DNA of 64,000 bases from positions 447,054 to 511,053 of the forward strand of contig OY969569.1 of the NCBI GenBank assembly GCA_963701185.1, read 5' to 3'. The DNA comes from Candidatus Gottesmanbacteria bacterium (GTDB lineage: Bacteria > Patescibacteriota > Microgenomatia > UBA10105 > UBA927). This document shows, piece after piece, positions 1 through 49,024 of the stretch. Every line of letters starts with the position of its first letter. Position 1 is the stretch's first letter. A program made the position numbers and the translations under genes. A model generated the notes under the pieces. The model was not told where the DNA came from. It did not search any database and saw nothing but the letters and a program-made list of their open reading frames with translations.

Positions 1-282
1 ATACCCGTTGCCTTTCTGCTTTAACCAGAAGTTCACGCTGTTGACCGTCGTGACGCTGACATGAAGTATCGAATGTATCCGTCGCTGATCGTATCCTTTG
101 TCCAATAAGTAGGCAATCGCCATCCGTTTTCCGAGCATGATCTTTTCGGTCGGAGAAAGTAAATCATCAAGCAGCTCCTGAGCTTCCTGATCTGTCCGAA
201 TATGTACCAATGTATGACGGAATAGGGAGAACATGCTCTGTTCTACCGCTTTGGACATTGGGTGCCTCGATATTTGCGCCAT
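1..282 (-). CDS. TrpR-like YerC/YecD family protein; 3' end of the gene lies beyond the window start
   Basis: Minus-strand translation from the ATG at 280-282 gives MAQISRHPMSKAVEQSMFSLFRHTLVHIRTDQEAQELLDDLLSPTEKIMLGKRMAIAYLLDKGYDQRRIHSILHVSVTTVNSVNFWLKQKGNGY. It resembles YerC/TrpR-type HTH proteins and is a paralog of the ORF at 23611..23994. Confidence 0.5.
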   Translation of the reverse strand, partial: MAQISRHPMSKAVEQSMFSLFRHTLVHIRTDQEAQELLDDLLSPTEKIMLGKRMAIAYLLDKGYDQRRIHSILHVSVTTVNSVNFWLKQKGNGY

Positions 283-290
283 ACTTTTTC

Positions 291-318
291 TGTTTTAATG
301 TTTTAAAACATTAAAACA
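291..318. repeat. Perfect 28-bp palindrome TGTTTTAATGTTTTAAAACATTAAAACA, copy 1 of 4, 8 nt upstream of the YerC-like start codon
   Basis: Read directly; the core reads as 10-bp arm + TTTAAA + 10-bp arm. The other copies are at 4297..4324, 12577..12604 and 13323..13350. Confidence 0.9.
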
Positions 319-431
319 AGAATAGCATAACCCGTGAAAATAACATACCGGTAGAGTATACTTACCTCCGACACCATCGCTGCCGCGTGTCTTACTAAAT
401 AGCCCGTCAGAACGTGATATAATAAGCTTCT

Positions 432-788
432 ATGCCGACAAAAGAACTCGTTGCGCGTTGTACTCAGTGCGACATAATTTTTAAAGGAAATTTAACATGG
501 GAATACGACAAATATCAGGACCCGGTGATCGATTATACAAGCGCTCTCGTACAAAAAATCGGCGAACATCATTGGAAGTTCCGAACAGGAAATGACCATG
601 GTTCCGTTGTCTTATTCGTAAACGAAATAGACGCAAATCAAGAGCCTCTGGAAGTACCTAAAGAAAACACCCAAGAATTAGACCTTTTTCCTTCGGCAAT
701 TGGTACACTCATAGTTGCGCGAACATCTTCTCCAACGGTTTATAACACAATTAGTTATTTTCGAAGAAACGCGCTTGATACGAAATAA
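432..788 (+). CDS. hypothetical protein
   Basis: 118-aa ORF with no recognisable motifs. Confidence 0.35.
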   Translation: MPTKELVARCTQCDIIFKGNLTWEYDKYQDPVIDYTSALVQKIGEHHWKFRTGNDHGSVVLFVNEIDANQEPLEVPKENTQELDLFPSAIGTLIVARTSSPTVYNTISYFRRNALDTK

Positions 789-815
789 TTCTTCCGTTTT
801 TGATACAATACAAAT

Positions 816-1619
816 ATGAAAATCGACGGGAAAGCGCTTGCAGATGCAATTCTTGCTGATCTAACGAGCGAAGTTAAAAAACTTCATATTTTACCTACCC
901 TCGCTGTCATTCTCGTCGGGGATGACCCGGAATCACTTTCTTATATCCGCCAAAAACAAAAAGCCACGGAAAAAATCGGCGGGAGATTTATTTTCGAAAA
1001 ACTTCCCAAAACAACGCTTCAAAAAGAACTCGCGGCACGGGTTGAAATGTATAACAGAGATCCAACTGTTCACGGACTCATTGTCCAGAGACCTCTCCCC
1101 CCGCACTTCGATGTATCGATAAATCGAAGTATCGACCCTAAAAAGGATGTTGACGGATTTGTCAAAAATTCGCCGTTTGACGTGCCCATCTCCATGGCTA
1201 TTTTTACAATTCTGAAAAACATAAATATTTCAATAAAAAATAAAAAGATTGTTATCGTCGGAAGAGGGGAGACGGCAGGAAAACCCATCGCGGCGGCATT
1301 CGAAAAGCAACAATGTGCGACGTCTGTAATTACCAGTAAAACTTCCGTTCCCCAGGAAATCATGAAGACTGCAGACATTATTATCAGTTGTGTCGGGAAA
1401 AAGGGAATTGTGACCAGCGACGCAATAAAACCCGGCGCCATCCTTATTTCCGTGGGTCTTTGGCGCACCGAGGACGGTAAACTGCACGGAGATTACGAGG
1501 AAAATGAAATAAAAGACATAGCCTCATTTTATACGCCGACGCCCGGCGGCGTGGGGCCATTGAACATCGCCTCCCTCATGCAAAATCTCGTCCTGGCGGC
1601 CCAAAAAATGACACATTGA
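816..1619 (+). CDS. folD: bifunctional methylenetetrahydrofolate dehydrogenase/cyclohydrolase
   Basis: Motifs LAVILVGDDPESLSYIRQK, HGLIVQRPLPPH, DPKKDVDGF, IVIVGRGETAGKP, TPTPGGVGPLNIA; ends with TGA. Confidence 0.9.
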   Translation: MKIDGKALADAILADLTSEVKKLHILPTLAVILVGDDPESLSYIRQKQKATEKIGGRFIFEKLPKTTLQKELAARVEMYNRDPTVHGLIVQRPLPPHFDVSINRSIDPKKDVDGFVKNSPFDVPISMAIFTILKNINISIKNKKIVIVGRGETAGKPIAAAFEKQQCATSVITSKTSVPQEIMKTADIIISCVGKKGIVTSDAIKPGAILISVGLWRTEDGKLHGDYEENEIKDIASFYTPTPGGVGPLNIASLMQNLVLAAQKMTH

Positions 1620-1650
1620 CAGACAATTTTCCCGTCGATAATATGCATGT

Positions 1651-1917
1651 ATGAGAAAGTCAACCCATTATTTTTACGACCAAACGGACGTTAGGAATAT
1701 CATAAGAGATGAACTGGAAAAAGCAAAACCAGGATGGGTAGAAGACATCACAGATGCAGTAACTAAAATTGTCGGTGGAAAATTCGACAAAGTGATGACC
1801 GTTTTAGACAAATTCGTTGGAGAAATCAAAGCATACAGAGAAGAACAAGTCCTTCATCAACTTCAGCACGATAGAATAGAAAAACGTATCAAAAGATTTG
1901 AACACCCGGTTTTATGA
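1651..1917 (+). CDS. hypothetical small protein
   Basis: 88-aa ORF; ATGA overlap with the next gene suggests translational coupling. Confidence 0.35.
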   Translation: MRKSTHYFYDQTDVRNIIRDELEKAKPGWVEDITDAVTKIVGGKFDKVMTVLDKFVGEIKAYREEQVLHQLQHDRIEKRIKRFEHPVL

Positions 1918-2645
1918 AACAATTTGCCGGAGCGATCATTATATTTTTTCTTGCACTCTTTGCCTATACGCGCCTTGCCGGTCCCATCCCGTTTAGCGTA
2001 AACCAGATCACGACAACAAAAACCGATACGTTTACCGTCACCGGTGAGGGGAAAGTAAGCGTTCCGCCGGATATTGCCGTCGTTTCGGCAGGCGTACAGA
2101 CGCAAGCCGCAACGGTGAAACTGGCACAGGACCAGCTCAATGCCGCAATCAATGCAGTGAGCGCTGCAGTGAAAAAGGCGGGGGTCCAAGATAAAGATAT
2201 TAAGACAACCGGCTACACCATCAACCCGATGTACGATTACAGCACCCGAACCCCGCGGATTACCGGGTATCAGGCTTCGTCAAATCTTACCATCAAAGTC
2301 CGCGCAATAGATACTGCCAATGCCGTTATCGATGCGGCGACTGCAGCCGGCGCCAACCAGGTCGGCGGCATCTCGTTTGACGTGGATGACAAGACCAAGG
2401 CTCAAAATGAAGCACGTGCTATGGCCGTGGCGGACGCCAAAACCAAAGCAACCGCCGCCGCAAAAATTGCCGGATTTTCACTCGGAAAAGTCATCAACTA
2501 CAGCGAGGATTTTGGCGGCGCCCCACGCCCGATTCCGATGCTTGCCAAGGCCGATGTGGGACTGGGCGCGGGCGCTCCGACACAGATCGAAACCGGATCA
2601 AACGAGATCACAGTAACGGTTTCGCTCTCCTACCAAATCCAATAA
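1914..2645 (+). CDS. SIMPL-domain (DUF541, YggE-like) periplasmic protein
   Basis: N-terminal TM/signal segment. Ala/Lys-rich body typical of SIMPL (ITVTGEGKVSVPPDIAVVSAGVQT ... GYQASSNLTIKV). Confidence 0.7.
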   Translation: MKQFAGAIIIFFLALFAYTRLAGPIPFSVNQITTTKTDTFTVTGEGKVSVPPDIAVVSAGVQTQAATVKLAQDQLNAAINAVSAAVKKAGVQDKDIKTTGYTINPMYDYSTRTPRITGYQASSNLTIKVRAIDTANAVIDAATAAGANQVGGISFDVDDKTKAQNEARAMAVADAKTKATAAAKIAGFSLGKVINYSEDFGGAPRPIPMLAKADVGLGAGAPTQIETGSNEITVTVSLSYQIQ

Positions 2646-2695
2646 CTTATAGGTCTTGCCCCGCACCTCCTGCGGGGGTAGAATAGAGCTCCCCT

Positions 2696-3301
2696 ATGGG
2701 CAGAACTCACGTAACACCAATTCAACAACCCGACGATACTACCTGCGGACCTACCGCTCTCAAGCATGCGCTCGCGATGTTCGGCAAACGGAAGTCATTG
2801 GACTATCTTATGGAACTCTGCGGCACGAATAGAAACGGCACCAGCACAAAAAACATGGTCCGCGCCGCCAATAAACTCGGGTTTTCCGTTCTGGTCGTTG
2901 AGTACGCAACGCTCCATCACCTGCAAAGCGCACTCAAATACAATCCCACGCAGCTGCGCGCGGTCCTCGTGTCGTATCTCTATGACCTGGACGAAAAAGA
3001 CCGGCCGCATGCCGATTCGGGACACTGGGCCGCCGTCTCGTCCTACTCTGCCTCCAAAAGCAGGATTGTCCTGTTTGACAGCTCTTCTGCGCAAAAAAAA
3101 TCGTACGATTGGGCGGACTTCCGCAGCCGCTGGATGGATTTTGATTTAAAACGGCGGAAGTACGGCCGCAGGAAAAAACATTTCCGGCTTATCAGAAAAT
3201 GGCAGCAGCAATTGTTATTTGTCATGGCCCGGGATCCGTCGCATCTTCCCAAATTCACGATCGGGACAAGTCACATCTTTACACCCGAGCAAACGGTTTA
3301 A
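2696..3301 (+). CDS. C39-like (papain-fold) cysteine peptidase domain protein
   Basis: Gln/Cys/His arrangement IQQPDDTTCGPTAL ... SGHWAAV, as in peptidase C39 / C39_2 domains. Standalone with no ABC transporter. 3' end overlaps the convergent ATP-grasp gene. Confidence 0.5.
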   Translation: MGRTHVTPIQQPDDTTCGPTALKHALAMFGKRKSLDYLMELCGTNRNGTSTKNMVRAANKLGFSVLVVEYATLHHLQSALKYNPTQLRAVLVSYLYDLDEKDRPHADSGHWAAVSSYSASKSRIVLFDSSSAQKKSYDWADFRSRWMDFDLKRRKYGRRKKHFRLIRKWQQQLLFVMARDPSHLPKFTIGTSHIFTPEQTV

Positions 3302-4283
3302 CAAAACGGTGCAGGGAGGATTCGACAATTTTCCACACGAAATCGGCGAATGTCATCCCTGCCGCTTTATAGGAAACCGTCATCCCGTATTCATCGGAAT
3401 CGGACAAACCGGGGTTACTGTTTGCTTCTAAAATATATATGGCGTCGCCGACCGAACGGATATCAAGACGCGCATAATCGCGGAATCCCAACTCTTTAAA
3501 CGTTTTTTTGGCAACCGATGTGATTTTTGCTGCGAAATCTACGGGCAGCGCGGGAAGTCCCACGCGGGATGATGCATAATCCAATGTCGCTTCCTCCCAC
3601 CGGCTTTCGTAGGTCAACAGCGATTCGGGGCCATACGAATCAAAAATAATTTCCGCCGGCGGCAATATTTTCACCCCGTGCGGTGTTTCAAGGACCGTCA
3701 CCTGAAACTCCCGCCCGGAAATAAACTCCTCTGCGATGACGGGTTCACCGAACGATCCGATGCGCTCACGTACGCGCCCCGCCAATTCCTGCCGGCTTCC
3801 CACGACAGCGTCATGAGTGAGTCCGATACTGCAATGTTCAAATGCCAGTTTGACGATGACAGGATACCGGAAATCATCACGGATGGTTTCCGTCCCGTTT
3901 TCAAATACCTGCCAGCGGGCGGTCGGAAGATGATACGCATCCAGCGCTTTTTTCATCAAAATCTTGTCGGACGTCGTCAGGTAATTTTCACGCGTGGCCC
4001 CCGTGAAGGGAATACCTGTATGTTCAATTGCCGTAAACGCACCATCGGAGAGCGGCAGGTCCAGCCCCGTCCAGTCAATGAGATTGACGATGCAGTCGGC
4101 ACGGATCTTCGCAATGGAGGGAAGGGAATCTTCATCTATCGGAACAAGGGTCGGATGCGCACCTTTTTCCTTCAAGGCCGCACATACCTCTTCCGCCGAA
4201 TCCACAGTGTCCTGTTCCGTGTCGGCGAATTTACCCGCAAGGGCCCGTTTGGTCGGCAGACTATAGACAACGGCAATATGCAT
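3279..4283 (-). CDS. ATP-grasp enzyme, D-alanine--D-alanine ligase family
   Basis: YPVIVKLAFEHCSIGLTHDAVV, EEFISGREFQVTVLE, DIRSVGDAIYILEANSNPGL match the Ddl-type ATP-grasp C-terminal domain. N-terminus lacks the canonical Ddl G-rich start. Confidence 0.7.
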   Translation of the reverse strand: MHIAVVYSLPTKRALAGKFADTEQDTVDSAEEVCAALKEKGAHPTLVPIDEDSLPSIAKIRADCIVNLIDWTGLDLPLSDGAFTAIEHTGIPFTGATRENYLTTSDKILMKKALDAYHLPTARWQVFENGTETIRDDFRYPVIVKLAFEHCSIGLTHDAVVGSRQELAGRVRERIGSFGEPVIAEEFISGREFQVTVLETPHGVKILPPAEIIFDSYGPESLLTYESRWEEATLDYASSRVGLPALPVDFAAKITSVAKKTFKELGFRDYARLDIRSVGDAIYILEANSNPGLSDSDEYGMTVSYKAAGMTFADFVWKIVESSLHRFVKPFARV

Positions 4284-4296
4284 AATTGATTTCTTC

Positions 4297-4324
4297 TGTT
4301 TTAATGTTTTAAAACATTAAAACA
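4297..4324. repeat. 28-bp palindrome copy 2, 13 nt upstream of the ATP-grasp start and 21 nt downstream of the recombinase stop
   Basis: Identical to copy 1. Confidence 0.9.
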
Positions 4325-4345
4325 TTCTTTGGATAAAATAGGCCA

Positions 4346-5281
4346 TTATTTTCTGTGAAATTTAGCATGGATTTCTTTGAGTTGCGGATTGGTAATATGG
4401 GTGTAAATTTGCGTTGTGGAAACGTTTTTGTGCCCAAGCATTTCCTGGATTGCCCGCAGGTCCGCGCCTCCGGTCAAGAGATCCGTTGCAAAACTATGCC
4501 GCAGGCCATGCGGCGTGATTTTTACCGGCAAATGCGCCTGCTTCACATATTTTTCCACCAGCCGCTGGACGCTCCGAGGGGTCAAACGCTGCGGGGCATC
4601 CTTTTTCCCTGCCGTGCGTGTAAACAAGGCTGTGTCGGTGTCACTTCGGCCCGCAAGATATTTTTGTACCCATCCGGCGGCCGCATCGGATAAAAACACA
4701 ACGCGCGCCCGTCGGCCTTTTCCGATCACGCCGAATTCACGGCGGTCAAAATTGATCTGGTCGCGGTTTAATTTGGTGAGCTCCGACACCCGAAGACCGG
4801 TAGAAAATAAAACTTCCATAATCGCTTTGTCCCGGAGATTCCCGGGTATTTTCAACAGCCGCTCGACCTGTTCGCGTTCCAAAAATTTTATCGAACGGGA
4901 TTCTGCCTTCGGTAAATCAATTTTCTCCGGAGCAACAACGGCAATATCCCGTTTCAGGCAATATTTTAAAAACGATCGCAGTGCAATCAGATGATAATTT
5001 TGCGTGACGCGCTTTAACGTTAAGTTATTTTTATCAGTAAATCGCGATAAATATAACCTGTACTGCCGGATGGAATCTGCGGAAATAGCCGTAGTCGTCA
5101 GTGGCCGGGTAGGGGATTGGGACGCCAAAAAGTCGACAAACCGGTGCAAATAATGCGCATAGTTTCGGATGGTTAATTGCGAAACATTCCGTTCAATTTC
5201 AAGATATTCCAGAAAATCTTTTACTAATTTTTCCAAATCCATACCTATACCCAGATTGTACGACATCGCAACAAATGTCAA
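4346..5281 (-). CDS. tyrosine site-specific recombinase, XerC/XerD family
   Basis: N-terminal core-binding motif (LEYLEIERNVSQLTIRNYAHYL). C-terminal catalytic region (HGLRHSFATDLLTGGADLRAIQEMLGHKNVSTTQIYTHI). The true start may be the internal MDLEKL. Confidence 0.85.
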   Translation of the reverse strand: MTFVAMSYNLGIGMDLEKLVKDFLEYLEIERNVSQLTIRNYAHYLHRFVDFLASQSPTRPLTTTAISADSIRQYRLYLSRFTDKNNLTLKRVTQNYHLIALRSFLKYCLKRDIAVVAPEKIDLPKAESRSIKFLEREQVERLLKIPGNLRDKAIMEVLFSTGLRVSELTKLNRDQINFDRREFGVIGKGRRARVVFLSDAAAGWVQKYLAGRSDTDTALFTRTAGKKDAPQRLTPRSVQRLVEKYVKQAHLPVKITPHGLRHSFATDLLTGGADLRAIQEMLGHKNVSTTQIYTHITNPQLKEIHAKFHRK

Positions 5282-10612: not shown

Positions 10613-11830
10613 CTATAGCCATTTCCGCTTTAGTTCAAGAAAAGAATTCCTCCTGATACTTTCTCTAATGTCATCTACGAGCCGGTGGATAAAATGAAGA
10701 TTATGAATCGTTGCCAGCCGATATCCCAAAAGTTCTTTGACGTGAAACAGGTGATGGATGTAGGCGCGGGTAAAATGCGTGCATGTGTAGCATGCGCAGC
10801 CCTTCTCAACCGGCCCGAAATCTTCCGCAAAACCCGCTTTCGTAATATCAATAGCCCCCCGCTTTTCATACAACACACCGACTCGGGCCAATCGGGTCGG
10901 CTGGACGCAGTCAAAGGTATCCATACCGTGTTCCACAAGCGTAAAAATATCATCAACCTCCCCCACTCCCAGAAGATGGCGGGGTTTATCCTCCGGCAAA
11001 AGCGGCGTCACCCATGCCAAAACATTTTCCATTTCCTTTTTGCTTTCCCCTACCGATACGCCGCCGATGGCAATTCCGTCAAAATCCATGAAGCTGATTA
11101 CCTTCGCCGACTCCTTCCGCAAATCCTCAAACACGCTCCCTTGAATAGACCCGTACAAAGCGGTCGACGAATTTAACAAAATAGTTTTTTTGTTTTTTAA
11201 TTTTTTGTGTTCTTCCAGACTTCGTTTTGCCCATGCGTGGGTCCGATCCAAAGATTTCCGTGCTTTTTCGTGAGTTACCCCGTACGGCGTGCAGTCGTCA
11301 AACGCGATATGCATATCGCTCCCCAACTCCTCCTGCCACTTCATCGAAGATTCCGGGGTAAATATATGTTTCGTCCCGTCCCAATGGGATTGAAATTCAA
11401 CGCCGTCATCGGTAATTTTTACCATTTTTTTATTGTCATTCCCGACCTGATCGGGAATCCGCGTTTCTCCAAAAACCAATACCGATTCCCGCCTTCGCGG
11501 GAATGACATAGAAGAACGCCCGAGTGAAAAAACCTGGAACCCTCCGCTGTCCGTCATGATCGGCCGGTTCCAGTTCATAAATTTGTGCAAACCGCCGGCT
11601 TTTTTGATAACCTCAATCTCCGGCCGCAGATACATATGATACGTATTGACGAAAAACAGTTGAACACCAATTGTATTCAATTCTTCGGGTGTGAGGCTTT
11701 TGACCGTCGCCTGTGTGCCCACCGGCACAAACGCCGGGGTTTGGATATCGCCATGCGCCGTATGGATTACCCCCACCCGCGCCCGTGTTTTCTTATCTTT
11801 GTGAATCTGTTTGAAGCTAAATTCTCCCAT
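10613..11830 (-). CDS. tgt: queuine tRNA-ribosyltransferase
   Basis: [42 protein letters not shown]...HHLF. Carries an in-frame ~30-aa insert encoded by a palindromic element. Confidence 0.9.
   Translation of the reverse strand: [405 protein letters not shown]
11434..11508. repeat. 75-bp element with terminal inverted repeats TGTCATTCCCG...CGGGAATGACA and two internal hairpins, inserted in-frame in tgt
   Basis: Hairpins ATTCCCGA-CCTG-ATCGGGAAT and GATTCCCGC-CTTC-GCGGGAAT. Encodes the extra segment [31 protein letters not shown]. Confidence 0.75.
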
Positions 11831-11855
11831 GTCCCCTATTTTATCACGTCCTGAA

Positions 11856-11886
11856 TTGACAAAGCAGAAAGAGAGAGAGATAGAAT
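11856..11886 (+). promoter_or_regulatory. Candidate sigma70-type promoter TTGACA-N19-TAGAAT, 7 nt upstream of the 11894 ORF
   Basis: Read directly; no SD sequence (near-leaderless). Confidence 0.4.
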
Positions 11887-11893
11887 TCTCCGC

Positions 11894-12190
11894 ATGGCTT
11901 CAATTGAATGTAAAAACCGATCAATTTCTGATATACAAGAATTACGACCGCCGGTTCAGGTCGATGAGACGCATGCAGTAACGATAGCTAAAGTTAGAGG
12001 AAACGGAGCACGCTCTGATGCGATTTGCATGTTGTTAACAAGAGATATTAATTCTGTTCCTTTCTGCAAAGCCCCAAGCCATTCCGAAACGGATTGCCCG
12101 GTTGCTTTATTTTATAACGGAACAATTACGTATAAAAAAGCGAACGAACTTCTGGATAAGGCGTACGGAAAACCACAAACCATTGGCTAA
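11894..12190 (+). CDS. hypothetical protein
   Basis: 98-aa ORF. Confidence 0.4.
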   Translation: MASIECKNRSISDIQELRPPVQVDETHAVTIAKVRGNGARSDAICMLLTRDINSVPFCKAPSHSETDCPVALFYNGTITYKKANELLDKAYGKPQTIG

Positions 12191-12200
12191 ACTTCTACTT

Positions 12201-12491
12201 TTACGCGGGGAGGAGTTTGGTTTTGAATGCGTTGAATTCGCGGCGGGTGACAGAGTCTGTTTCCAGATCAATCACGCGGCGGCGGATATCGGAAACATCT
12301 GACGCCACATCATCAACCTTGTCTTCTACTCTCTTGAGATCTTCAGCTTTGGCTAGTTTCTTCACACCATCTTTTGTCGCGTAATCTTCCAGCGTTTTAC
12401 TTATCACAGTTGCAATTTGCGTCACAGCATCATCAATATCCCCTTTTGTTGCTGGTGCCTGAAGGTTTCTCTTTTTCATATCTTGTATCAA
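12201..12491 (-). CDS. hypothetical charged/coiled-coil small protein
   Basis: 96 aa, Lys/Asp/Glu-rich. Its C-terminal 32 codons are duplicated in the chimeric ORF at 12634..12915. Confidence 0.4.
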   Translation of the reverse strand: MIQDMKKRNLQAPATKGDIDDAVTQIATVISKTLEDYATKDGVKKLAKAEDLKRVEDKVDDVASDVSDIRRRVIDLETDSVTRREFNAFKTKLLPA

Positions 12492-12576
12492 GATAGCATA
12501 TTCAAAACGAATTACAATAATACAAATTACTATATTCTATCCCGCGCCATGTTCGATCTTGAGGCGTGAGATCGTT

Positions 12577-12604
12577 TGTTTTAATGTTTTAAAACATTAA
12601 AACA
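12577..12604. repeat. 28-bp palindrome copy 3, followed by the conserved flank GGACATACGAGGAGTATCCTTGTAGGATG
   Basis: Read directly. Confidence 0.9.
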
Positions 12605-12633
12605 GGACATACGAGGAGTATCCTTGTAGGATG

Positions 12634-12915
12634 CTATGCGGGGAGAACTTTTGTTTTGAATTCTTTGAATTCGCGGCGGGTGACGGTGTCGGTTTCGAGA
12701 TCTATCACGCGCCGGCGGATATCGGAAACGTCGCCTGCGTTCCAACGGGCACAAACGCCGGGGTCTTGATGACCCCGTGAGCCGTATGTATCTCCCCCAC
12801 CCGCGCCTTTGTCTTTTTGTCTCTGTGAATCTGCCTGAAGCTGAAATCCCGCATACAGGCTATTGTAGCACGCTTTTAATTGACAAAGCAGAGAGAGAGA
12901 GGTAGATTTAAACAT
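12634..12915 (-). pseudogene. Chimeric ORF from a diverged partial duplication: tgt 5' region (11703..11893) fused to the 3' end of the 12201..12491 gene
   Basis: 12633-12730 is ~85% identical by eye to 12203-12300. 12727-12915 matches 11704-11893 including the TTGACA promoter. The ORF ends ...[32 protein letters not shown] vs the original ...[32 protein letters not shown]. Confidence 0.6.
12880..12908 (+). promoter_or_regulatory. Duplicated promoter TTGACA-N17-TAGATT, 7 nt upstream of the 12916 ORF
   Basis: Paralogous to 11856..11886. Confidence 0.35.
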
Positions 12916-13299
12916 ATGAGATCAGGTGAATTCATGCAACCAAAACAAGAACTTGGGGGGGAAAGTTTAGTGAACTACTTCGCCGGAATGTTGTTTGATG
13001 AAACGATAGCCATGCAGTTCGTTAAAACGCGATCCCAAGAAGCAAAAATTTTTGAGGGCGCAGACAAAATTCTTCAAGAAAATGAAAGGATAGATCAACA
13101 TCTTAGAAATCAAGGCCTTTATTTTTATGAACCAAATGGTTCAATTTTTATGGATTACAAAAAAATGCGCGAGCGCAAATATTCTGAAGATGGGTCTTTA
13201 AGCAAATGGCAGGAGCAACATGTTAAGCCAACCATGTCCGCAGAACAAGCATTTAAAATTTGTAAAAAGGAAGTCACAACGTGGTGGGATGTTAAATAA
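12916..13299 (+). CDS. hypothetical protein
   Basis: 127-aa ORF from the ATG at 12916 (MRSGEFMQPKQ...); no known motif. Confidence 0.4.
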   Translation: MRSGEFMQPKQELGGESLVNYFAGMLFDETIAMQFVKTRSQEAKIFEGADKILQENERIDQHLRNQGLYFYEPNGSIFMDYKKMRERKYSEDGSLSKWQEQHVKPTMSAEQAFKICKKEVTTWWDVK

Positions 13300-13322
13300 T
13301 ATAAATCTCGCGACAAAAAGTT

Positions 13323-13350
13323 TGTTTTAATGTTTTAAAACATTAAAACA
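13323..13350. repeat. 28-bp palindrome copy 4, followed by the related flank TCACCTGCAAGGATACTCCTCGTAGGACG
   Basis: Read directly. Confidence 0.9.
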
Positions 13351-13384
13351 TCACCTGCAAGGATACTCCTCGTAGGACGATTCA

Positions 13385-13951
13385 TTAATATTCTTTTGTT
13401 TCAATAACTTTCTTCAACAACTTTTCAACGTCGAGGATTTTTGCTTGGGTGGAAAGATATTTTTCATCTAATCTCCCTTTCTGCACTTTCAACATGCCAA
13501 CGCAGTCGCGGAAATGGCGTTCGCTCATCACCTGTTTACACCAGGATAATTTCGTAAGAATAAGATCTTCTGCGGAGACAATCGGGATTTCCAGTTGGTT
13601 GAGAGTAAGATAGCGTTTCCGTTGTTCATTTGCCTCAAATTCATGATCGGCAACAAGCCATAAATCTACTTTTGTTGTCGTTTCGGTGTGATACAGCGTA
13701 TAAAACGTCACATGTTCATTATTCAATTCAGTCGTATCCTGAACATATGTTGACGGAAGAGAGAAAAGTGCGCGTATCAATTGTTTTTTCGCTTTTTCCT
13801 CTATTTCCAATACAAAATCGATGTCGTGTGTCGCACGCGGATACCCATAGGAAGATACTGCGAAACTCCCCGTCAGGAGATACGGAACGTTGAATCGGCG
13901 GAAAAGTTTTGCAAATGTAATAAGAATGTCCCGTTGGCCCTGTTCATTCAT
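13385..13951 (-). CDS. minimal nucleotidyltransferase (Pol-beta superfamily) domain protein
   Basis: G-S-x(n)-D-x-D signature LLTGSFAVSSYGYPRATHDIDFVLEI; 188 aa. Confidence 0.55.
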   Translation of the reverse strand: MNEQGQRDILITFAKLFRRFNVPYLLTGSFAVSSYGYPRATHDIDFVLEIEEKAKKQLIRALFSLPSTYVQDTTELNNEHVTFYTLYHTETTTKVDLWLVADHEFEANEQRKRYLTLNQLEIPIVSAEDLILTKLSWCKQVMSERHFRDCVGMLKVQKGRLDEKYLSTQAKILDVEKLLKKVIETKEY

Positions 13952-14088
13952 GATTTTTTATTTCTTTTTTTACGCGGTGCCTCGTGCGTCCCTTTTGCGG
14001 CTAACTCCCGAACCAAATCAGAGAGCTTGAATGCTTGTTCTAGCCGTTGTTCAGGAGTAAGTTTTTGAAGAAGTATTGTTTGATTCAT
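13948..14088 (-). CDS. 46-aa ORF whose TGA overlaps the nucleotidyltransferase ATG (ATGA)
   Basis: MNQTILLQKLTPEQRLEQAFKLSDLVRELAAKGTHEAPRKKRNKKS; below the ORF-track cutoff. Confidence 0.3.
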   Translation of the reverse strand: MNQTILLQKLTPEQRLEQAFKLSDLVRELAAKGTHEAPRKKRNKKS

Positions 14089-14112
14089 CAGGAGTATTAT
14101 ACACCATCACTA

Positions 14113-20349: not shown

Positions 20350-20363
20350 ATATGTACCTCCTG

Positions 20364-20449
20364 TGCCTAGGGCGGGAATCGAACCCACATGAGCTTTTAT
20401 GCTCACAGCTTTTTGAGAGCTGCGCGTCTACCAATTCCGCCACCCAGGC
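20364..20449 (-). tRNA. tRNA-Leu (anticodon CAA) with long variable arm
   Basis: Minus-strand sequence GCCTGGGTGGCGGAATTGGTAGACGCGCAGCTCTCAAAAAGCTGTGAGCATAAAAGCTCATGTGGGTTCGATTCCCGCCCTAGGCA. 7-bp acceptor stem, GTTCGATTC T-loop, anticodon loop CTCAAAA. Confidence 0.8.
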
Positions 20450-20465
20450 ATTAACCCGTATTATA

Positions 20466-21809
20466 TCATTTAGCCGGGGTTTCTTCGCGCTTCCTTTCAA
20501 TGCCGTAAAACCGGATGCGGTCGCCGCGAAAGATCAGGTCCACTTCACCCAGCGGGCCGTTTCTATGTTTTGCAATCCGGAGTTTGGTCGGAATCTGTGC
20601 TCCCCACTGGGTCTGATCCCCTTCTTCGCGGTACAAAAACATGACAACGTCGGCATCCTGTTCGATGGAACCGGATTCGCGAAGATCGGACAGTTCCGGA
20701 ACTCTGGTGCCGCGTGACTCGACGGCCCGGGAAAGCTGCGAACACGCCAGGACGGGAAGACGAAGTTCGCGGGCGAGATTTTTGAGGCTTTGGGAAATAA
20801 CGGATACCTCCTGCACACGATTGTCGAAGTTCCGTCCGGAGTCGGCAAGCTGCAGATAGTCGACAATGAGAAGTTTGACGCCGTGCTCGACTTGCAGACG
20901 ACGGGCTTTGGTACGCATTTCAAGGATATTCAGTCCCGGCGTGTCATCGATATAAATAGGCGCCTCTGCAAGCTCCCCCATGGCTTCCGAAAGCCGCGTA
21001 AAATCATCGTCCGATAATTTTCCCGTTTTTAATTTCCACGCATCAATATCCGCCTGCGACACAAGCAAACGATCCACAAGCTCTTCTTTGCTCATCTCGA
21101 GCGAAAACACACCGACGGGAATTTTTTCGCGGACTGCAGCGTACTGCGCGATATTGAGAATCATCGCCGTTTTTCCCGTACCGGGCCGGGCGGCGAGAAT
21201 GAGAAGGTTAGAATCCTGCATGCCGGCAAGCCGAAAATCCAGATCGTTAAATCCGGTCGGCACGCCCCTGAGCCCGCCAGCGCGTTTATGGAGTTCGTCC
21301 AACCGATCAAACGACGAGGCCAATGCATCTTTAATGGGAATAAAGTCACGCTTCGTCGTCTGCTGCGAGATGGCAAAAATCTCCTGTTCCGCACTATCGA
21401 GAATTTCCTTTGCATCTCCCTGATCTTTAAAGGCAAGTTCCGTAACGCGCGCGCCCAACTCAATCAGTCTGCGTTTCGTATACTGTTCCTGAATGATGCG
21501 CGCGTATTTTTGCGCGTGCGCTGACGTGGGGACGACGTTTAATAGTTCCGATACATAGGACGCCCCGCCGACCCGCTTCAGCGTCCCGTCTTTTTTTAAC
21601 TGCGCCGTGACGGAAACGACGTCCAAAGGTTCATGCGCTTCGTACAGGGTGAGCATCGCACCAAAAATTGCCGCATTGGCGTCCGCGTAAAAATGTTCGG
21701 GACGCAAAAATTCCGCGACGTCAATCATCGCGTCTTTGTCGATAAGGACAGCGCCCAGGACCGATTGCTCGGCGACATCATCATGCGGCGGAATTTTGAG
21801 GTCTGCCAT
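20466..21809 (-). CDS. dnaB: replicative DNA helicase
   Basis: Walker A GTGKTA, typical DnaB N- and C-domains, 447 aa, no intein. Confidence 0.9.
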   Translation of the reverse strand: MADLKIPPHDDVAEQSVLGAVLIDKDAMIDVAEFLRPEHFYADANAAIFGAMLTLYEAHEPLDVVSVTAQLKKDGTLKRVGGASYVSELLNVVPTSAHAQKYARIIQEQYTKRRLIELGARVTELAFKDQGDAKEILDSAEQEIFAISQQTTKRDFIPIKDALASSFDRLDELHKRAGGLRGVPTGFNDLDFRLAGMQDSNLLILAARPGTGKTAMILNIAQYAAVREKIPVGVFSLEMSKEELVDRLLVSQADIDAWKLKTGKLSDDDFTRLSEAMGELAEAPIYIDDTPGLNILEMRTKARRLQVEHGVKLLIVDYLQLADSGRNFDNRVQEVSVISQSLKNLARELRLPVLACSQLSRAVESRGTRVPELSDLRESGSIEQDADVVMFLYREEGDQTQWGAQIPTKLRIAKHRNGPLGEVDLIFRGDRIRFYGIERKREETPAK

Positions 21810-48094: not shown

Positions 48095-49024
48095 CTAGAG
48101 TATAATCTTCACGCCGAAATTTTCATAGTACCGTGTTATAAATTCTTTTTTCGAAAACTGATGGGTTTGGGTTCCGTATTTTTCGACCGTATAGACGGCG
48201 GCAACCGATCCCATCTGCCCGCAGACCTGCAAGGAGAGTCCTCGTAGGTACCCGGCGACAAACCCCGCGCGGAACGCGTCCCCCGCCCCTGTCGGGTCGC
48301 TCACTTTCTTTGGCTTTGCCGGCTTACAGTGAATGCTCTCTTTTCGCGTCTCAATAATTGAACCTTTAGAGCCAAGTGTTGTAATACACATGGGTACCAT
48401 CACACGAAGTTCCTCGTGACTAATATCCAATTTTCGTTCAATAAGTGCAATTTCGTAATCATTTCCGATGAGAATTTCCGCTCCGGCAATCCCCTCGCGC
48501 AATTCTTCCGCCGTAAAATTACCGATTTGAAATGCGGGGTCATACAGATACTTTTTTCCTCTACATTGGCGAACATACCGCACCATCGCCTTGGGATCGG
48601 TGGGACCAATAATGACGAAATCTGCATTTTGGGGAATTGTGAGCCTGTGGTTATAGCGGGACGCGCCGATGTAAAATGCTCCGATTTGATTATCATCCTT
48701 ATCCGTCACGACGTGATAGGAACTACAGGGCTCGTCTTTGAAAACGGAAATGCCCGAAGTAGGTATCTTATATTTCTTAAGATACTTAGAATATTCTTCC
48801 CAATCGTTTCCTGCCGCCGTCACAATCAAGGGTTGAACACCTAACAGTTTCAACGTATACGCCTGATTAACAGCCGTACCGCCGAACTGTTTATTGAGTG
48901 TATCCACAAGGAAGCTCAGGGAAATTTTGTGGATTTTATCCGGCATGATGCGGTCGGCAAACCGGCCGTTGAAATCCATAATAAAGTCGTAACTTAAGCT
49001 ACCGGTGACAACAACGCTATTCAT
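48095..49024 (-). CDS. PfkB-family carbohydrate/nucleoside kinase
   Basis: DPTGAGDAFRAGFVAGYL. Confidence 0.8.
   Translation of the reverse strand: MNSVVVTGSLSYDFIMDFNGRFADRIMPDKIHKISLSFLVDTLNKQFGGTAVNQAYTLKLLGVQPLIVTAAGNDWEEYSKYLKKYKIPTSGISVFKDEPCSSYHVVTDKDDNQIGAFYIGASRYNHRLTIPQNADFVIIGPTDPKAMVRYVRQCRGKKYLYDPAFQIGNFTAEELREGIAGAEILIGNDYEIALIERKLDISHEELRVMVPMCITTLGSKGSIIETRKESIHCKPAKPKKVSDPTGAGDAFRAGFVAGYLRGLSLQVCGQMGSVAAVYTVEKYGTQTHQFSKKEFITRYYENFGVKIIL

Follow-up and report, generated by a model that had tools for sequence, protein, structure and literature searches.

What is the role of a perfect 28-bp palindrome which occurs in four identical copies within 64 kb of DNA from Candidatus Gottesmanbacteria, one of them 8 nt from the start codon of a gene for a TrpR-family protein? 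The stretch analysed here (the window) comprises 64,000 nucleotides of contig OY969569.1 (assembly GCA_963701185.1, positions 447,054 to 511,053 of the forward strand). The palindrome, TGTTTTAATGTTTTAAAACATTAAAACA, is located at 291-318 (c1), 4297-4324 (c2), 12577-12604 (c3) and 13323-13350 (c4). Its expected count is 0 and it was seen in none of 100 dinucleotide-preserving shuffles of the window, which confirms the statement of an earlier sequence-only reading that four identical copies are not due to chance. That reading had put forward a recombinase core site tied to a neighbouring Xer gene, with an operator or a translational hairpin as alternatives. Comparison of related genomes instead makes it quite likely that the TrpR-family (YerC/HisR-like) repressor encoded next to c1 recognises this palindrome as its cognate operator.

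The palindrome combines two overlapping dyads

Copy c1 lies 8 nt from the ATG of the TrpR-like gene at 282. Copy c2 is located 13 nt from the ATG of a ddl-like gene at 4283 and 21 nt from the xer stop codon. All three distances, recomputed from the coordinates, agree with those given previously. No degenerate copy (up to 6 mismatches) was found in the 64 kb beyond the four exact ones. To the left, the sequence was extended with a Logan contig from the source sample (L101), which ends at window position 317. This contig carries a fifth perfect 28-mer (L101 439-466), about 150 bp outside the window, on the last codons of the TrpR-like gene (ATG TTT TAA). Five perfect copies are thus found within about 14 kb, and their flanks are unrelated except for a 58-nt unit common to c3 and c4. 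Logan contigs of the source sample stop exactly at the 28-mers (L020 corresponds to window 290-4323, and L101 ends as indicated above), since the repeat interrupts k-mer assembly and short-read assembly breaks at these positions.

The 28-mer is composed of two 20-bp dyads, TGTTTTA-N6-TAAAACA, at positions 1-20 and 9-28, with an offset of 8 bp. As judged by a regular-expression search, TTTA-N6-TAAA is present twice (positions 4-17 and 12-25) with TGT/ACA ends. The element therefore consists of four half-sites of the TGnT type, spaced with a period of 8 bp, and its 16-bp core is AATGTTTTAAAACATT. The recombinase-style layout suggested previously (10 + 6 + 10) sums to 26 and not 28 bp; such a parse would need 11 + 6 + 11. 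No published description of this palindrome was found in a literature search.

A TrpR-like repressor gene starts next to c1

The 5′ part of the TrpR-like gene (94 codons) occupies positions 1..282 of the minus strand. The gene continues to the left of the window and the full protein has 136 aa. Because an M-x-Q-[IV]-S N-terminus is near-invariant in 30 homologues, the true start is the ATG at 282 and not the position retained by the gene caller, 258. On the other side of c1 lies a plus-strand operon with orf118, folD, orf88 and genes for a SIMPL-domain protein and a C39 peptidase. Candidatus Gottesmanbacteria and Microgenomates provide the closest named homologues both of the TrpR-like protein and of the Tgt protein encoded further along the window.

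The protein matches the Trp_repressor family (PF01371) at 43.7 bits, for a cut-off of 27. When a profile of the proteins from the candidate phyla radiation (CPR) was compared with PDB, it matched HisR-type structures, 3KOR (4.5e-11), 3FRW and 3G1C (E-values from 4.5e-11 to 2e-8), and more weakly E. coli TrpR (E about 0.03-0.07). An AlphaFold (AF2) model of the protein (pLDDT 82) includes seven helices. In Foldseek, the target TM-scores of this model were 0.75-0.86 to 3KOR, 3FRW, 3G1C and E. coli TrpR; a further match was the tandem TrpR/half-site complex 1TRR. The protein has a small helix-turn-helix (HTH) fold without catalytic domain; repressors of the HisR type and TrpR fold are small dimeric HTH proteins. 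Most homologues have 134-156 aa, with about 40 extra helical residues at the C-terminus. Together with scores below both NCBIfam equivalog cut-offs (given below with the points that weigh against the operator), these extra residues indicate a distinct subfamily, of which at least 154 clusters (50% identity) match at E ≤ 1e-30.

Conservation and co-variation of the palindrome in related loci

To follow the palindrome outside the window, we drew on homologues of the TrpR-like protein from 80 metagenome loci, corresponding to 65 distinct proteins. For 57 of the 65 distinct homologues, a palindrome occupies the position of c1 (hereafter O1, the predicted operator over the promoter of the TrpR-like gene), its end at most 25 nt upstream of the ATG. 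Another copy was observed around the stop codon in 50 of the 57 loci having enough downstream sequence, and starts -11 to +8 nt from the stop in 37 of these 50. The copy on the stop codon in L101 corresponds to this second predicted operator, O2. Further matches are rare, with only 2 in 357 kb of related loci, and most lineages possess just O1 and O2 within 6 kb on either side. This pairing lends good support to what had been mentioned as an alternative, i.e. an operator in the leaders of the YerC/TrpR-like and ATP-grasp genes.

The family consensus (left arm TGcTtyAATGATTT, right arm AAATCATTrAAgCA) includes two invariant positions, T9 and A20, while A8, G10, T12, A16, A17, C19 and T21 are nearly so. 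In the family logo, TGnT appears at positions 1-4 and 9-12. Distant lineages keep the dyad geometry and lose the TTTA/TAAA letters. The palindrome thus varies by lineage yet stays symmetric, and O1 and O2 within a genome change together. Changes on both sides were observed in 12 of the 14 dyad pairs, and the observed values were reached in none of 500 shuffles. In some lineages all four half-sites switch jointly, to TGATTTA (four times, L025/L030) or to TGTATTA (four times, L027). Template switching, considered as a source of the symmetry, was not retained; within-genome differences between O1 and O2 are mirrored in 38 of 89 cases. All 28 positions are identical across genomes whose repressors share 52-69% identity. 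The n of TGnT tracks a residue of the first HTH helix, with T for Q in every listed Q row, A for H and mostly A for Y; such tracking would fit a specificity determinant, although shared ancestry confounds it.

Searching a single genome of each species for the central 20-mer gave 19 loci, 8 of them from Microgenomates/Patescibacteria genomes. Among those, the full 28-mer is present in one (L007) and others carry symmetric variants (TGTG..CACA, TGAC..GTCA and CATT..AATG). In Curtissbacteria (L008), the site abuts the ATG of the TrpR-like gene and a second copy lies on its stop codon. In two other Microgenomates loci the 20-bp core precedes a DAHP synthase-DHQ synthase-EPSP synthase operon (L002) or genes for a DeoC-type aldolase, DHQ synthase II and an aspartokinase/ASA dehydrogenase fusion (L004). 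These shikimate-pathway operons are possible members of the regulon. In both (L002 7820-7890 and L004 1065-1135) the palindrome is located between short G+C-rich hairpins (CCCGCC...GGCGGG), which could be terminators or an attenuator. In L037 and L064, arrays are found in the order site, unknown gene, O1, repressor gene, O2.

Promoter geometry at O1 and proposed mode of action

On the minus strand of the window, the promoter at O1 (c1) is composed of a -35 box TTCACG (338->333), 17 nt ending with TGT and a -10 box TTTAAT (315->310). The ATG is found about 20 nt past the predicted transcription start. Across the family, a TTGACA box is located 34-35 nt (48 nt in some lineages) to the left of the O1 centre, and positions 4-9 are skewed to TAnAAT in O1 alone, not in O2. 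From this fixed -35 offset and the TAnAAT skew, it follows that O1 extends over the -10 box and the predicted start of transcription. This would be the arrangement known classically from autorepression by promoter occlusion. A promoter-like site for the divergent orf118-folD operon, GTGAAA-17-TATACT, is found on the plus strand at 334..362, 16 nt from c1. The -35 boxes of the repressor gene (TTCACG, minus strand) and of orf118-folD (GTGAAA, plus strand) overlap back to back, and both hexamers are kept in L021.

The situation is different at O2, beside which no TTGACA box was ever found in the family loci, in either direction. The gene after O2 varies (RluA-like, RecA, TatD, aminoacyl-tRNA synthetases, tRNA-Leu, tRNA-Trp or a convergent gene). 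A function of O2 as promoter of the downstream gene was considered and rejected, with no -35 box in either direction and, in L057, a tRNA-Trp which has its own promoter.

These features suggest the following mode of action. Two repressor dimers would bind each 28-mer in tandem. At O1, the bound protein would cover the -10 box and the transcription start and silence the promoter of its gene. O2 and the further copies close to stop codons may serve as auxiliary operators, via DNA looping or as a transcriptional roadblock. Copies c2 and c3 would place the ddl-like gene and orfY, respectively, under the same repressor; c4, behind geneB and a nucleotidyltransferase gene, would likewise bring those under its control. 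The co-repressor may be an amino acid, possibly an aromatic one, as suggested by the sites before shikimate-pathway operons and by the rest of the family, in which TrpR responds to tryptophan and HisR to histidine.

Additional copies in lineage-specific DNA

Copy c2 lies between xer, encoding a Xer-type tyrosine recombinase (4346..5281, minus strand), and the ddl-like gene, encoding an ATP-grasp ligase (3279..4283, minus strand; PF07478 at 83 bits, far below the Ddl equivalog cut-offs) and a candidate target of c2. In relatives, the two genes overlap without a site between them, as observed in L022 and L102 (L102 xer 10667-11617, ddl-like 11614-12630). Copy c2 therefore sits in a lineage-specific intergenic insertion of 62 nt (4284..4345), as judged by alignment with L022 and by the L102 gene table. 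No 28-mer was found next to the xer orthologues of L022, L102 and L105. However, L022 and L103 (with L102) carry the identical 28-mer around their own TrpR-like gene. The xer and ddl-like genes are probably co-transcribed in relatives, and c2 parts them here.

Copies c3 and c4 belong to an island (11831-14112) between a Na+/H+ exchanger gene and tgt, which includes geneA, orfY, geneB, the nucleotidyltransferase gene and a 46-aa open reading frame (ORF). No Pfam family was found for geneA, geneB and orfY, nor for the unknown genes of L037 and L064. Copy c3, with short hairpins on both sides, is located 85-97 nt upstream of orfY (12201..12491, minus strand), which encodes a small coiled-coil-like protein and is its candidate target. 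Copy c4 is found 23 nt after the stop of geneB (12916..13299, plus strand) and 34 nt after that of the nucleotidyltransferase gene (minus strand), a stop-proximal position which resembles that of O2. The gene bracketed by c3 and c4, geneB, has its own TTGACA-17-TAGATT promoter at 12880-12908. The conserved flank noted previously for c3 and c4 was confirmed as a shared 58-nt unit composed of GTT, the 28-mer and a 27-nt hairpin region, with 84% identity. The hairpin-forming flank of c3, TACGAGGAGTATCCTTGTAGG, is at 12605..12634 and its inverted copy beside c4 at 13351-13377. The 21-nt hairpin-forming element itself occupies 12610-12630 and, inverted, 13354-13374, with a weak third match (4 mismatches) at 48225-48246.

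L102-L106 have a single gene at the island position, without homologues of the island genes. Between c3 and geneB, the segment 12635-12901 is a pseudogene mosaic in which 12635-12732 copies the 3′ end of orfY (12202-12299) at 87% and 12729-12901 copies the 5′ end of tgt with its divergent promoter (11705-11877) at 78%. This mosaic points to duplication and deletion in a lineage-specific island. The cassette-like segment proposed previously is thus a real lineage-specific island, but we found no sign of recombination at the 28-mer. Taken together, c2, c3 and c4 appear to have arisen in DNA absent from relatives, most lineages keeping only O1 and O2. The nucleotidyltransferase gene (13385-14088, minus strand) gives weak AbiEii/aminoglycoside-nucleotidyltransferase Pfam matches and is preceded by the overlapping 46-aa ORF; the two look like a toxin-antitoxin or defence-type pair. 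Tgt (10613-11830, minus strand) has 405 aa, compared to 360-393 aa in many close homologues, and appears to carry an internal insertion.

Position of the cassette in related genomes

The unit formed by promoter, O1, repressor gene and O2 is located between gyrA and folD in the window genome and between dnaB and tRNA-Leu in L103. The dnaB-tRNA-Leu junction is empty, without residual 28-mer, in the window (20450-20520) and in L106. The cassette borders are located 37 nt outside O1 and 22 nt outside O2. The cassette is also found directly upstream of tRNA-Leu(CAA) in L008, L025-L028 and L030. On the minus strand of the window (20363-20520), tRNA-Leu(CAA) directly follows the end of dnaB and a TATAAT box, and this corresponds to the empty form of the locus. 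In Gottesmanbacteria RIFOXYB1 (L105/L106, about 1700-2600), several hundred nt are inserted behind the tRNA-Leu, after which the tRNA 3′ end occurs again (GGGTTCGATTCCCACCCTAGG). A duplicated tRNA 3′ end of this kind marks the integration of an element at a tRNA gene.

Alternative explanations

We consider it very improbable indeed that the palindrome is the core site of the adjacent Xer tyrosine recombinase (dif-, pdif-module- or integron-attC-like), its copies being crossover sites which bracket exchangeable cassettes. It is true that the element shares with dif/pdif a length of 28 bp, a possible 11-6-11 parse and a xer gene nearby in the window, c2 being only 21 nt from the xer stop. The Xer protein also passes the NCBIfam XerA/'integron integrase' model (232.9 bits, cut-off 220), the c3/c4 and L037/L064 sites flank unknown, foreign-looking genes, and the promoter-O1-gene-O2 unit is found at differing loci in related genomes. 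However, relatives with the identical 28-mer (L022, L103/L102) have overlapping xer and ddl-like genes and no site near xer. More generally, xer lies within 6 kb in only few of the 80 loci, to be compared with the pairing with the TrpR-like gene in 57 of 65 lineages. Full symmetry, spacer included, would leave the site without directionality. One site per replicon is expected, at the terminus, instead of five perfectly symmetric copies in about 14 kb amid housekeeping genes, and copies around folD, the ddl-like gene and tgt would invite lethal deletions. GC skew (2-kb bins over the 64 kb) is negative in nearly all bins and the cumulative curve falls almost monotonically; since no sign switch occurs, the terminus is not in the window. 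Recombination should also leave one site behind, whereas the empty loci keep none and the cassette borders fall outside the palindromes. Moreover, the site diverges fast between lineages, unlike dif. As for an integron attC, the palindrome is perfect and without bulges, and the Xer protein stays below TIGR02249, the integron integrase model (127 vs 265). The recombinase core site, which headed the sequence-only reading, is therefore unsupported: the partner of the element is the TrpR-like gene, and xer is a neighbour of c2.

An RNA-level role, in which a 12-bp A/U hairpin would occlude translation at 5′ ends and act as terminator or stabiliser at 3′ ends, accounts for the proximity to start and stop codons and for the strong dyad co-variation. 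The hairpin folds at -9.6 kcal/mol (z = -5 vs shuffles), and at c3/c4 G+C-richer hairpins stand beside T-rich arms in a terminator-like manner. At this energy, however, the A/U-rich stem is weak, and with transcription predicted to start within the palindrome, only the right arm would be present in the mRNA. Neither strand is favoured, as judged by the similar numbers of G·T and A·C mismatches (24 vs 25), no T-tract follows O2, and T9, G10, T12, A17, C19 and A20 are near invariant although a stem would not need specific bases. No Rfam match of the palindrome was found at E ≤ 1. We thus regard this role, including the translational hairpin mentioned previously, as very improbable. A selfish or neutral dispersed palindrome, similar to repetitive extragenic palindromes (REPs) or miniature inverted-repeat transposable elements, would be improbable too. 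In this case the TrpR-like gene would be a favoured neighbour, or a mobilising or maintenance factor. The copies are indeed perfectly identical, new ones occur in lineage-specific insertions (the 62-nt c2 insert and the 58-nt c3/c4 unit), the cassette has moved between related genomes, and the gene is flanked by two copies, as are the REP-associated tyrosine transposase (RAYT) genes by REPs. Nevertheless, copy number is very low, with none in the other 50 kb of the window and the 2 extra matches in 357 kb reported above. The flanked gene encodes an HTH repressor and no HUH or other transposase, no target-site duplications were seen, and even deeply diverged lineages keep the element in the same place with respect to the -35 box and ATG. 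Viral contigs gave a single chance-level match, in a metagenome-assembled genome of a giant virus; a phage origin was rejected, this match being probably due to chance.

Several observations weigh against the operator itself. Binding by this subfamily is a prediction from genome comparison, and the correlation between helix residue and half-site suffers from the shared ancestry indicated above. The protein does not reach TIGR01321, the TrpR equivalog (29.3 bits vs 67.25, window fragment), nor TIGR02531, the YerC-YecD/HisR equivalog (17.1 vs 42.2 for the window fragment and 29.9 vs 42.2 for the full-length L008 protein); as a consequence, specificity and effector are not transferable from TrpR or YerC/YecD. 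O2 at the stop codon has no obvious classical role, no -35 box is recognisable at c2, and c4 is located between two convergent gene ends with no promoter to repress. The genes adjoining the sites are functionally heterogeneous, and identity at 28 of 28 positions is stricter than usual for an operator.

Three features would stay outside the operator account: the coupling of O2 to the stop codon, the 28/28 identity and the arrival of operator copies at new loci. One tentative possibility, which we hold to be rather unlikely, is that the repressor gene and its two bracketing operators form a self-contained cassette relocating as a unit. The operator would then have been copied into new intergenic DNA (in front of the ddl-like gene and among the island genes), and repression would result from enclosing a whole gene between operator-bound tandem dimers, by looping or roadblock.

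Relation to known systems and significance

In Bacillus subtilis, the protein known as YerC is the histidine repressor HisR, which belongs to the TrpR family and has the 20-bp palindrome cacTTTAnnnnnnTAAAgtg as its operator (PMC9413887). About half of the hisR genes have a site upstream (autoregulation), and the HisR consensus is lineage-specific, CPR bacteria being outside that study (PMC9413887). The TrpR motif is a 20-bp dyad with TGTA...TACA ends (PMC9413887), and TrpR can bind operators as a tandem pair of dimers (PMC8745587). The system described here has in common with HisR a small HTH protein of TrpR fold with best structure and profile matches to the HisR-type 3KOR, 3FRW and 3G1C, the TTTA-N6-TAAA core, through which each of the two 20-bp dyads matches cacTTTAnnnnnnTAAAgtg, a site often upstream of the regulator gene and a lineage-specific consensus. 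It differs by its 28-bp double dyad, the predicted second operator at the stop codon, a longer C-terminus and a score below TIGR02531. No his genes are found next to any site, the neighbours being shikimate-pathway genes, the ddl-like ligase and unknown genes.

With E. coli TrpR it shares the fold, 20-bp dyads (TGTA...TACA there, TGTT...AACA here) and a predicted tandem arrangement of dimers, documented for TrpR in 1TRR. In contrast, sequence similarity is weak (TIGR01321, 29 vs 67 bits) and the half-site sequence differs. Besides its own gene, TrpR regulates one for a DAHP synthase, to which the L002 site before the DAHP synthase operon provides a parallel. A downstream auxiliary operator is not known for trpR. 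Auxiliary operators with DNA looping occur in lac (O1/O2/O3), gal (OE/OI) and lambda (OL-OR). Here as there, a few hundred bp separate two identical operators, of which the first is at the promoter and the second inside or behind the transcription unit. Here, however, the second is exactly at the stop of the repressor gene itself, and looping is a prediction. These comparisons suggest a system of a known kind, an autoregulated TrpR/HisR-type repressor with its operator, in a form distinguished by the double dyad, the predicted stop-codon operator and the CPR subfamily.

Transcriptional regulation in CPR/Patescibacteria is almost uncharted, these bacteria being uncultured and encoding few regulators. 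The present analysis removes the Xer-site lead as false and supplies a testable predicted repressor-operator pair kept across many Microgenomates lineages. This pair presents a readable specificity code, half-sites changing along with the protein, and an unusual layout, with predicted operators at both the start and the stop of the repressor gene. There are hints of control over shikimate-pathway and cell-wall-type genes. If the tentative cassette proposal were true, operator spread and gene insulation would represent a mode undescribed for the TrpR family, and might be a main regulatory device of these very small genomes.

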